NCBI GenBank assembly: GCA_016181905.1
Contig: JACOYM010000002.1
Location: 1 to 24,148 of the forward strand
Direction of reading: 5' to 3'
Source of the DNA: Candidatus Pacearchaeota archaeon
GTDB taxonomy: Archaea > Nanobdellota > Nanobdellia > Pacearchaeales > GW2011-AR1
DNA: 24,148 bases
In this document: positions 18,555 to 19,496 of the stretch, piece after piece
Position numbering within the stretch: the stretch's first letter is position 1
Layout of the letters: each line of letters opens with the position of its first letter
Position numbers and translations under genes: made by a program
Notes under the pieces: generated by a model
What the model saw: the letters and a program-made list of their open reading frames with translations, nothing else
What the model was told of the DNA's origin: nothing
The model's database searches: none

Positions 18555-19496
18555 ATGGAAGAAGATTCTAAAATCTATATCCCCGGGCATAAGGGGATGG
18601 TAGGAAGCGCGATTGTGAGGATATTGAACAAAGAGGGTTATAAAAACCTGATTTTCAGGGAGCATTCTGAATTGGACTTAATAAGGCAAAAAGAAACAGA
18701 GGATTTTTTTATGAAAGAAAAGCCAGATTATGTTTTTCATGCTGCTGCAAGGGTAGGAGGAATATCTGAAAATATTAATTTTCCTGCAGATTTTATACTT
18801 GAAAATCTGCAGATACAAACTAATATAATTAACTCTGCATACAAGTCAGGAGTTAAGAAGCTGATGTTTATAGGAAGCAATTGCATATATCCAAGAGAAT
18901 GCCCTCAGCCAATGAGAGAGGAATATCTTTGGACAGGCAGATTAGAGCCAACAAACAAGGCATTTGCTGCTGCAAAGATTGCTGGAATTGAAATGTGCTT
19001 AGCTTACAACAAACAGCACAAAACAAGATTTATCTCTGTTATTCCTGCAAGCTTATTCGGAGAGAATGATGATTATGATGCGATGAACTCGCATTTTGTC
19101 CCTGCGCTAATCAGAAAATTTCATGAGGCAAAGAAAAACAATTCAAAAGAGGTTGTTTTGTGGGGAACTGGCAATCCACGAAGAGAGCTGATGCATGTTG
19201 ATGACTTTGCAGACGCTGCCTTGTTTCTAATGAATAACTATGATTCATCAGAGCCGATAAATGTCGGAACAGGAGAGGACAGAAGCATCAAGGAGATTTC
19301 AGAGATTGTAAAGAAGATTGTGGAATTTAAGGGAGAAATTGTTTTTGACAAGACTAATCCTGATGGAATGATGCAAAAATTGCTTGATTCCAGCAAAATA
19401 AACTCTTTGGGATGGATGCCAAAAACAGGCATTGAAGAAGGGATAAGAAAGACATATGAGTGGTATGTGAAGGAGAACGAGAGAAAGAGATTTTGA
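18555..19496 (+). CDS. fcl: GDP-L-fucose synthase-like epimerase/reductase (Fcl/WcaG family) with catalytic Tyr replaced by Phe
   Basis: GHKGMVGSAI, AAARVGGI, GSNCIYP (C110), EPTNKAFAAAK (F137/K141), SHFVPAL (H180), WGTGNPRRE, NVGTG, PDGM. Confidence 0.9.
   Translation: MEEDSKIYIPGHKGMVGSAIVRILNKEGYKNLIFREHSELDLIRQKETEDFFMKEKPDYVFHAAARVGGISENINFPADFILENLQIQTNIINSAYKSGVKKLMFIGSNCIYPRECPQPMREEYLWTGRLEPTNKAFAAAKIAGIEMCLAYNKQHKTRFISVIPASLFGENDDYDAMNSHFVPALIRKFHEAKKNNSKEVVLWGTGNPRRELMHVDDFADAALFLMNNYDSSEPINVGTGEDRSIKEISEIVKKIVEFKGEIVFDKTNPDGMMQKLLDSSKINSLGWMPKTGIEEGIRKTYEWYVKENERKRF

Follow-up and report, generated by a model that had tools for sequence, protein, structure and literature searches.

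The window analyzed here, a 24,148-nucleotide stretch of a Candidatus Pacearchaeota contig, carries at 18555-19496 (+) an uninterrupted open reading frame (ORF) of 313 codons, with no internal stops, that encodes a GDP-L-fucose synthase homolog (the synthase, here GFS, goes by the names Fcl, WcaG and GMER as well). By fold and descent the 313-residue product is a member of the GFS family of extended short-chain dehydrogenases/reductases (SDRs), but the tyrosine of the catalytic triad is replaced by phenylalanine (Phe137), and this residue is genuine, conserved and under purifying selection. Comparisons at the sequence level are best explained if the gene is functional and belongs to a separate lineage of GFS homologs that is tied to a GDP-heptose cassette. 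We give roughly even chances to the proposal that the job for which this lineage is selected is C5 or C3/C5 epimerization of a GDP-4-keto-heptose, with C4 reduction being dispensable.

The textbook example of a single SDR active site performing two epimerizations and one reduction is GFS. Cys109 and His179 perform both epimerizations, and Tyr136, with Ser107 and Lys140, protonates O4 in the NADPH (reduced nicotinamide adenine dinucleotide phosphate) reduction (PMC7949155, PMC12362431). The window protein (P0001) matched Pfam Epimerase (E 2e-59) and is 45% identical to E. coli GFS (PDB 1BSV; E 6e-94); against the NCBIfam model GDPFucSynFcl (NF047922, EC 1.1.1.271) it scored 439.3 bits, which is under the curated equivalog cut-off of 500. 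Its AlphaFold2 (AF2) model (predicted local distance difference test score, pLDDT, 87) superposed on 1GFS with a template modeling (TM) score of 0.89 and, over a range of 0.84-0.90, on 1GFS and the Campylobacter jejuni heptose C4 reductases. The Pfam match, the model and the N-terminal GxxGxxG motif confirm the extended-SDR fold. The only low-confidence stretch of the model was residues 120-135 (~18912-18959), the loop preceding the Phe137 helix, at pLDDT 51-68 (<50 at 127-129).

A HMMER pairwise alignment to 1BSV paired F137 with Tyr136, K141 with Lys140, S108 with Ser107, C110 with Cys109 and H180 with His179. The Ser-Tyr-Lys triad is incomplete, with Ser108 and Lys141 kept and Tyr replaced, whereas the Cys/His epimerization dyad is kept as C110/H180. 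The fold, Rossmann motif, Ser, Lys and dyad are shared with canonical GFS (1BSV/1GFS; human 4BKP). An earlier note, made from the letters of this DNA, had reported the change of YxxxK to FxxxK through codon TTT, and an intact C110 and H180; translation and the 1BSV alignment confirmed each of these, including the residue numbering. The features of the gene are as follows.

18555-19496 (+): Fcl/GFS-like extended SDR whose catalytic Tyr is replaced by Phe (NCBIfam, 1BSV, AF2 model)
18585-18605 (+): G11-x-x-G14-x-x-G17 dinucleotide-binding motif, its three Gly invariant in all 27 members of the core clade described below
18876-18884 (+): Ser108-Asn109-Cys110 by alignment, i.e., the SDR Ser, a clade-specific Asn and the epimerization base Cys (codon TGC, 18882-18884)
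18963-18965 (+): codon TTT, Phe137, within the peptide EPTNKAFAAAK and aligned to E. coli Tyr136
18975-18977 (+): codon AAG, Lys141 (E. coli Lys140), clade-invariant
19092-19094 (+): codon CAT, His180 (E. coli His179), the epimerization acid, clade-invariant

That TTT lies one base from TAT, and that the source assembly (G000) is a 70% complete metagenome bin, would favor a one-base sequencing or assembly error or a decaying gene, both of which the earlier note had listed as alternatives. TTT was present at this codon in Logan contigs built independently from two groundwater runs: a contig of run X1 (record 3; 18691-19411; depth 7.7) had no differences from the window, and a contig of run X4 (record 7; 18658-19402; depth 13.8) kept TTT with one single-nucleotide polymorphism at 18794. 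This support is at the level of contigs rather than raw reads, and both runs come from one study, possibly the source of the window; contigs from a second study (runs X5 and X6) end upstream of codon 137 and are hence silent on it. Phe is found in all four of the nearest protein clusters (77-85% identity), in every homolog above 75% identity and in 13 of the 13 members, from separate assemblies, of cluster P0003. The ratio of nonsynonymous to synonymous substitution rates (dN/dS) against the two closest genomic orthologs, L004 and G371, was 0.13-0.25, which indicates purifying selection. These two and the bacterial genomes G492 and G734 also have TTT, although the lack of synonymous variation across the five genes checked (5/5) is uninformative because the genomes are AT-rich. 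Error was rejected because the same TTT recurs in contigs of both runs, in L004 and G371 and in the 13 P0003 assemblies; decay was rejected because the frame is intact, dN/dS is low and the remaining catalytic residues are invariant. Presence of Phe in independent contigs and close homologs, combined with purifying selection, therefore refutes both, and we leave this explanation next to no probability.

Trees were built with FastTree on full-length alignments, for a set of 215 homologs and for an extended set of 364 Fcl-like sequences that included genomic relatives, and changes at the Tyr/Phe site were counted by Fitch parsimony. In the smaller set, all 15 Phe forms fell within one 25-sequence clade (FastTree support 0.985), interleaved with 10 Tyr forms. 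In the extended set, 23 proteins lack Tyr (22 with Phe and one with Thr) and all of them lie inside one 47-leaf group, so that Tyr is missing from 23/47 members of the group and from 0/317 Fcl-like proteins outside it, a pattern beyond what chance would give. At least nine changes occurred at the site, all within the group. The Fisher P of 1e-23 for Tyr loss inside versus outside is descriptive only because related sequences are not independent, and the count of at least nine changes is the better measure. A metagenome scan with the clade alignment gave canonical Tyr-type Fcl only among the matches listed, which were used as a control set, and a protein search restricted to residues 100-192 gave no enrichment for clade members. 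The single Thr form, L174 (G509:C80:31822-32751), has kept Ser, Cys, Lys and His.

Within the 27-member core clade, Ser108, Cys110, Lys141, His180, the three Rossmann Gly and an AAAxVGG segment are invariant. Clade members, which are about 60% identical to canonical Fcl, differ from it at S109N, M163I, T165A, Y168F, V181F/L, L182V, F212L/I, T272M and P273M; position 109, for instance, is Asn in the clade and Ser in 288/293 canonical Fcl. In the window protein the replacement of Tyr136 is thus accompanied by a remodeled pocket (S109N, T165A, Y168F, V181F, L182V, T272M, P273M). The Arg/Lys35 that binds the 2'-phosphate is conserved, whereas position 13, equivalent to E. coli Arg12, which we take to be a contact of the 2'-phosphate, drifts from Arg/Lys to Asn, Thr or Ala. 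As the other site residues are invariant while Tyr and Phe toggle, it is the phenolic hydroxyl alone that is dispensable and not the aromatic ring or the rest of the site. Extended SDRs acting on nucleotide sugars and naturally without the Tyr include CapE/FnlA and PglF, which have Met in its place and a re-partitioned chemistry, but these are UDP-GlcNAc 4,6-dehydratases of a different subfamily and still depend on hydride transfer. In the literature searched, which left subscription-only papers outside, no natural Tyr-less GFS homolog and no B12-binding radical S-adenosylmethionine (SAM) enzyme acting on GDP-heptose was described.

The gene is surrounded in the window by genes predicted to make and alter GDP-heptose.

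16076-17077 (+): SDR resembling GDP-heptose 4,6-dehydratase and Rmd, YxxxK kept (7US5, E 4e-55; 2PK3, i.e., Rmd, E 1e-49)
17026-18540 (+): B12-binding radical SAM enzyme, number 3 of the window, the cassette partner (Pfam PF02310 and PF04055)
20870-21835 (+): Cj1427-like GDP-heptose C4 dehydrogenase, YxxxK kept (PDB 6VO6/6VO8, E 7.7e-90)
21863-23923 (+): HddC-CBS-HddA fusion, GDP-heptose synthesis (Pfam/NCBIfam)
23923-24144 (-): C-terminal part of GmhA (SIS domain), truncated by the contig end (tblastn with the G371 GmhA, 73% identity)

Canonical GFS is paired with gmd, whereas the window protein sits in a GDP-heptose cassette instead. The best PDB match of the SDR at 16076-17077 is 7US5, the C. 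jejuni GDP-D-glycero-D-manno-heptose 4,6-dehydratase, and its score of 145 bits against the TIGR01472 gmd cut-off of 415 leaves the Fcl-like gene with no canonical gmd pairing. With an incomplete triad, a score under the equivalog cut-off and no canonical gmd partner, the protein departs from GDP-L-fucose synthase in three defining respects and should not be annotated as such. The usual arrangement was seen in the control set, where about 60 Tyr-type loci of at least 6 kb were tabulated and most had a gene ~30% identical to the window's dehydratase ~1 kb away, i.e., the usual gmd-fcl pair. The earlier note's assignment of a Cj1427-like SDR is borne out by the match to 6VO6, and its suggestion of radical SAM enzyme number 3 as a partner also stands: this enzyme is the conserved radical SAM enzyme of the cassette and shares 47-52% identity along its whole length with those of the bacterial Phe-type cassettes. 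The window's two other B12-binding radical SAM genes, at 1178-2710 (-) and 11810-13225 (+), share 22-25% identity with number 3, or 22-26% when their identity to each other is included. In G371 a radical SAM gene near the cassette (L111:17263-18702) is 87% identical to one of the three in the window.

Readable neighborhoods cover eight members without Tyr, namely those of the window, L004, G371, G492, G734, G425, G652 and G509; metagenomic clade members such as P0002, P0005-P0012, P0015, P0036, P0065, P0084 and others lie outside this set. All eight (three archaeal loci and five bacterial genomes) are in a GDP-heptose tailoring cassette, which contains HddA/HddC, a Cj1427-like C4 dehydrogenase, a DegT-family 3-dehydratase of the His type, the orthologous B12-binding radical SAM enzyme and, in most cases, a small, split thiamine diphosphate (ThDP) enzyme. 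L004 (= G404) and the congener G371, two further assemblies of Nanoarchaeia, repeat the gene order of the window, including the heptose 4,6-dehydratase-like SDR that the cassette has in addition in this archaeal genus. In G371, where the GmhA ortholog has a Pfam SIS_2 match, the cassette continues with GmhA, the DegT-family protein, a two-gene ThDP enzyme (E1_dh-like and Transket_pyr-like) and a flippase. Contig C10 of the source assembly (L155:3-3169) holds the N-terminus of the DegT protein, a 176-residue Transket_pyr-like protein, a 205-residue E1_dh-like protein and a flippase in the same order as G371. Since the window ends inside GmhA and C10 starts with DegT, the cassette is merely split by the contig end.

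The DegT protein of the cassette has His at the position of the pyridoxal 5'-phosphate (PLP) lysine (A-H-I-I-T-T versus A-K-N-L in the window's WbpE-like enzyme), and its alignments with E1 (3BCX) and ColD (2GMS) span the full length. Three copies (L111:4672-5925, L145:10751-12049 and L146:10786-11982) also carry a four-Cys insert, C-x-C-x2-C ... C, that resembles the Fe-S motif of E1. The His in place of Lys, the Cys-rich insert and the E1/ColD alignment together identify the protein as a 3-dehydratase of the pyridoxamine 5'-phosphate (PMP) type. It is encoded ~4 kb from the Fcl-like gene, in the same cassette, in G371 and begins contig C10 in the source assembly. Its 60-65% identity between DPANN archaea and a bacterial phylum suggests lateral spread of the cassette.

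The bacterial survey sampled 401 genomes from the phylum to which G401 belongs, with DNA fetched for the 30 best-scoring Fcl-like loci only. With the His-type DegT as marker, the cassette is present in ~32/401 genomes. Two Phe forms were found among the 30 loci, in G492 and G734, and both lie in cassettes with the B12-binding radical SAM enzyme, HddA, HddC, His-type DegT, the Cj1427-like SDR and a transketolase-like enzyme in split form; in each, the Fcl-like gene overlaps that of DegT. Eleven Fcl-like proteins are encoded directly next to a His-type DegT (4 Phe, 1 Thr and 6 Tyr); Cys, Lys and His are kept in every one and Ser in all but L183. Across the 11 bacterial genomes, the gap between the Fcl homolog and the 3-dehydratase gene is 0-39 nt. 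A Cj1427-like homolog is present in nearly all cassettes examined, and in most bacterial ones it occurs alone, with no dehydratase-like SDR. The archaeal cassette has two distinct routes to a 4-keto heptose, the SDR of 16076-17077 and the Cj1427-like enzyme of 20870-21835.

One comparison is with the C. jejuni enzymes DdahC, MlghC, Cj1428 and the HS:15 reductase (7ANH, 7ANC, 7M13 and 8EWU), Fcl-family SDRs that act on GDP-4-keto-heptoses, superpose on the window protein at the TM scores given above and have as their partner either a Cj1427-type dehydrogenase or a heptose 4,6-dehydratase. The reductase-only Fcl homologs of C. jejuni, DdahC and MlghC, have kept Tyr, but their C/H dyad is replaced by T/H or Y/R (PMC7949155). 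DdahC accordingly reads S-T-T-V where the window protein has S-N-C-I, and the 7ANH alignment splits around an insertion (after ~residue 200) absent from the window protein. Most of these reductases cannot epimerize and rely on separate cupin epimerases, none of which was found in G000, G371 or G734. The window lineage thus resembles a mirror image of the Campylobacter homologs: these have kept reduction only, and the window lineage looks to be the opposite, with the epimerization machinery kept and the reduction acid repeatedly lost.

A second comparison is with ColC, the GDP-4-keto-3,6-dideoxymannose 5-epimerase/4-reductase, which keeps Tyr and reduces C4. In the colitose pathway, to which ColC belongs, and in the C. 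jejuni HS:5 3,6-dideoxyheptose pathway, formation of the 4-keto group is followed by 3-deoxygenation and then epimerization. The placement of the bacterial relatives, directly after the His-type 3-dehydratase gene, is ColC-like, so that the lineage behaves like a reversed Campylobacter-type homolog put in the place of ColC. It differs from ColC in Phe137, and the cassette adds the B12-binding radical SAM enzyme, the ThDP enzyme and a predicted heptose substrate.

The earlier note had also pointed out that no RmlC-type epimerase is present in the window, and this holds: no window ORF has a cupin family match, and RmlC-type cupins (PF00908) were not found in the 70% complete G000, in G371 or in G734, whereas control genomes were positive. 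The Fcl-like protein, an SDR and not a cupin fold, is thus the only recognizable epimerase in these three genomes. One Phe-type genome, G492, does have an RmlC-type cupin gene (C69:13223-13729, L187) on the same contig, ~15 kb from the cassette, so cupin absence is not universal among Phe-type genomes. A second Fcl was not found in the source assembly (769 kb, 70% complete).

From these features we propose that the enzyme would act on a GDP-4-keto-(3-deoxy)heptose and epimerize it either at C5 or at both C3 and C5. The base would be Cys110 and the acid His180; the 4-keto group would be held and polarized by Ser108, Lys141 and the nicotinamide cofactor bound to the enzyme, and Phe137 would leave hydride transfer to C4 slow or unused. 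After 3-deoxygenation, epimerization would take place at C5, as in ColC. The epimerized 4-keto sugar might then be handed to the ThDP carboligase, the B12-binding radical SAM enzyme or both, and the final reduction may be left to another Tyr-bearing SDR, either the Cj1427-like enzyme or the dehydratase/Rmd-like protein. In YerE-type ThDP carboligation, the acceptor is a 4-keto-3,6-dideoxy sugar (PMC9306805). Because E1/ColD-like 3-dehydratases also act on 4-keto sugars, the cassette enzymes plausibly need the sugar in its 4-keto form. If C4 reduction is unnecessary in the cassette, the Tyr hydroxyl would be free to drift.

The substitution itself is also known from an engineered enzyme, in which it gives results that bear on this proposal from both sides. 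Human GFS Y143F, with the same substitution at the same position, shows a ~100-fold decrease in turnover number (kcat) with reduction becoming rate-limiting, whereas epimerization is retained and not strongly affected (PMC12362431). However, this mutant yields only GDP-fucose, at ~3% of wild-type activity, and a water molecule has been proposed to replace the Tyr hydroxyl (PMC12362431), so Phe does not abolish reduction. Y143F is a laboratory mutant of a canonical enzyme, with ~3% specific activity at ~1% of wild-type kcat; in the window lineage the change arose naturally, more than once and together with further changes in the active site. Several further observations also weigh against a lineage devoted to epimerization. 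Without exception the Phe forms preserve Ser108, Lys141 and the complete NAD(P)-binding motif, as a working reductase would need. Tyr-bearing and Phe-bearing members share cassettes of identical make-up, and the ThDP enzyme accompanies 4/5 of the non-Tyr forms and ~6/11 of the Tyr forms. Fcl with the canonical signature also occurs in heptose-type contexts outside the 47-leaf group, at L056, L069 and L094, two with a B12-binding radical SAM enzyme and one with a Cj1427-like SDR. Basal support for the 47-leaf group is weak (0.49), its sub-clades being supported at 0.89-1.0.

These observations bear on whether the enzyme is still a bifunctional epimerase/C4-reductase, in which the alkoxide would receive its proton from water or a Ser/Lys relay, Tyr and Phe would be nearly equivalent, and the product would be a reduced, L-configured GDP-heptose. 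We regard this, the main rival, as possible but doubtful. The residual activity and sole product of Y143F speak for it, as do the conserved GxxGxxG, Ser108, Lys141 and Arg/Lys35, the coexistence of Tyr and Phe forms in one cassette type, and the position beside the 3-dehydratase that the bacterial relatives share with ColC, itself both epimerase and reductase. Yet a mutation that lowers kcat 100-fold is seldom neutral, and the site has changed at least nine times here and not once in 317 canonical Fcl. The drift of position 13, the other 2'-phosphate contact, to Asn, Thr or Ala likewise argues against a selected reductase, and two other Tyr-bearing SDRs of the cassette could carry out the reduction. 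The earlier note's idea of an epimerase-only variant that leaves a 4-keto sugar is thus supported in part, by the invariant dyad, the lack of a cupin and the 4-keto type of pathway, and opposed in part, by the activity of Y143F, the retained cofactor site, Ser and Lys, and the interleaving of Tyr with Phe. Its related question, whether homologs beside the same radical SAM gene also carry Phe, has a divided answer: those of L004, G371, G492 and G734 do, and Tyr forms occur in the same cassette type too.

We also considered whether loss of Tyr tracks the ThDP enzyme, following a yersiniose-like logic. The counts given above do not cleanly support this, and as the ThDP enzyme occurs with Tyr and non-Tyr forms alike it does not explain the Tyr/Phe switch. 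A related explanation is that the enzyme acts on a carbonyl or step other than C4, e.g., a keto group on a branch installed by the ThDP enzyme, as a YerF-like protein would, or that it serves as a cofactor-bound scaffold for its neighbors. The pocket is remodeled relative to canonical Fcl, and a branch reductase would be expected in yersiniose-type pathways; but the invariant Cys/His dyad points to proton abstraction beside a ring carbonyl, loss of Tyr would hamper any ketoreduction, and the ThDP enzyme is missing from some of the cassettes seen. We consider this explanation improbable.

The preferred proposal, a C5 or C3/C5 epimerase of GDP-4-keto-heptose, can be extended, speculatively, to a redox-neutral pathway, which we think unlikely. 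In this version, the Cj1427-like enzyme would oxidize C4, retain the NADH and later return the hydride; in between, the Fcl-like protein and the 3-dehydratase, radical SAM enzyme and ThDP enzyme would remodel the 4-keto sugar without reducing it. If the same enzyme takes and returns the hydride, reduction by Fcl would be redundant, which would explain the decay of Tyr in this cassette only. Such a pathway would have no need for the α-ketoglutarate recycling used in C. jejuni.

If the lineage does epimerize without reducing, it would represent a 3,5- or 5-epimerase acting on GDP-4-keto sugars that belongs to the SDR type and does without a cupin, and it could serve to prepare L-configured keto-sugar intermediates. 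Its signature (Phe at the Tyr site, S-N-C and P-A-x-L-F) would prevent mis-annotation as GDP-L-fucose synthase, and it would offer an entry point to a heptose-tailoring cassette with a B12-binding radical SAM enzyme, a ThDP enzyme and a His-type 3-dehydratase. This cassette turns up repeatedly in DPANN archaea as well as in many uncultured bacteria, and the literature searched contained no description of it.

Other genes of the window lie beside or between those of the cassette.

14251-15948 (-): glycosyltransferase-like gene, divergent from the cassette and conserved in L004 and G371
19529-20746 (-): two opposite-strand genes between the Fcl-like and Cj1427-like genes, not at this spot in L004 and G371

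The two inserted genes are at 19529-20020 (-) and 20045-20746 (-). A cytidylyltransferase-like gene, resembling RfaE domain II (88 bits), is one of them; for the other neither Pfam nor NCBIfam gave a match, and the closest ESM Atlas clusters (score 0.95) provide a weak lead to NUDIX-like proteins.

A separate group of genes at 7578-10999 (+) encodes, in this order, a fusion of a GFO/IDH/MocA oxidoreductase with a class I methyltransferase, a hexapeptide acetyltransferase and a DegT aminotransferase of the Lys type. The earlier note had named this aminotransferase (9878-10999) as a possible user of the 4-keto product, a suggestion that we rejected because the PLP lysine is kept and the gene belongs to this separate oxidoreductase/acetyltransferase/aminotransferase module. 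The three look like counterparts of WbpB/D/E that would make a 2,3-diamino sugar; the oxidoreductase-methyltransferase fusion among them is unusual.

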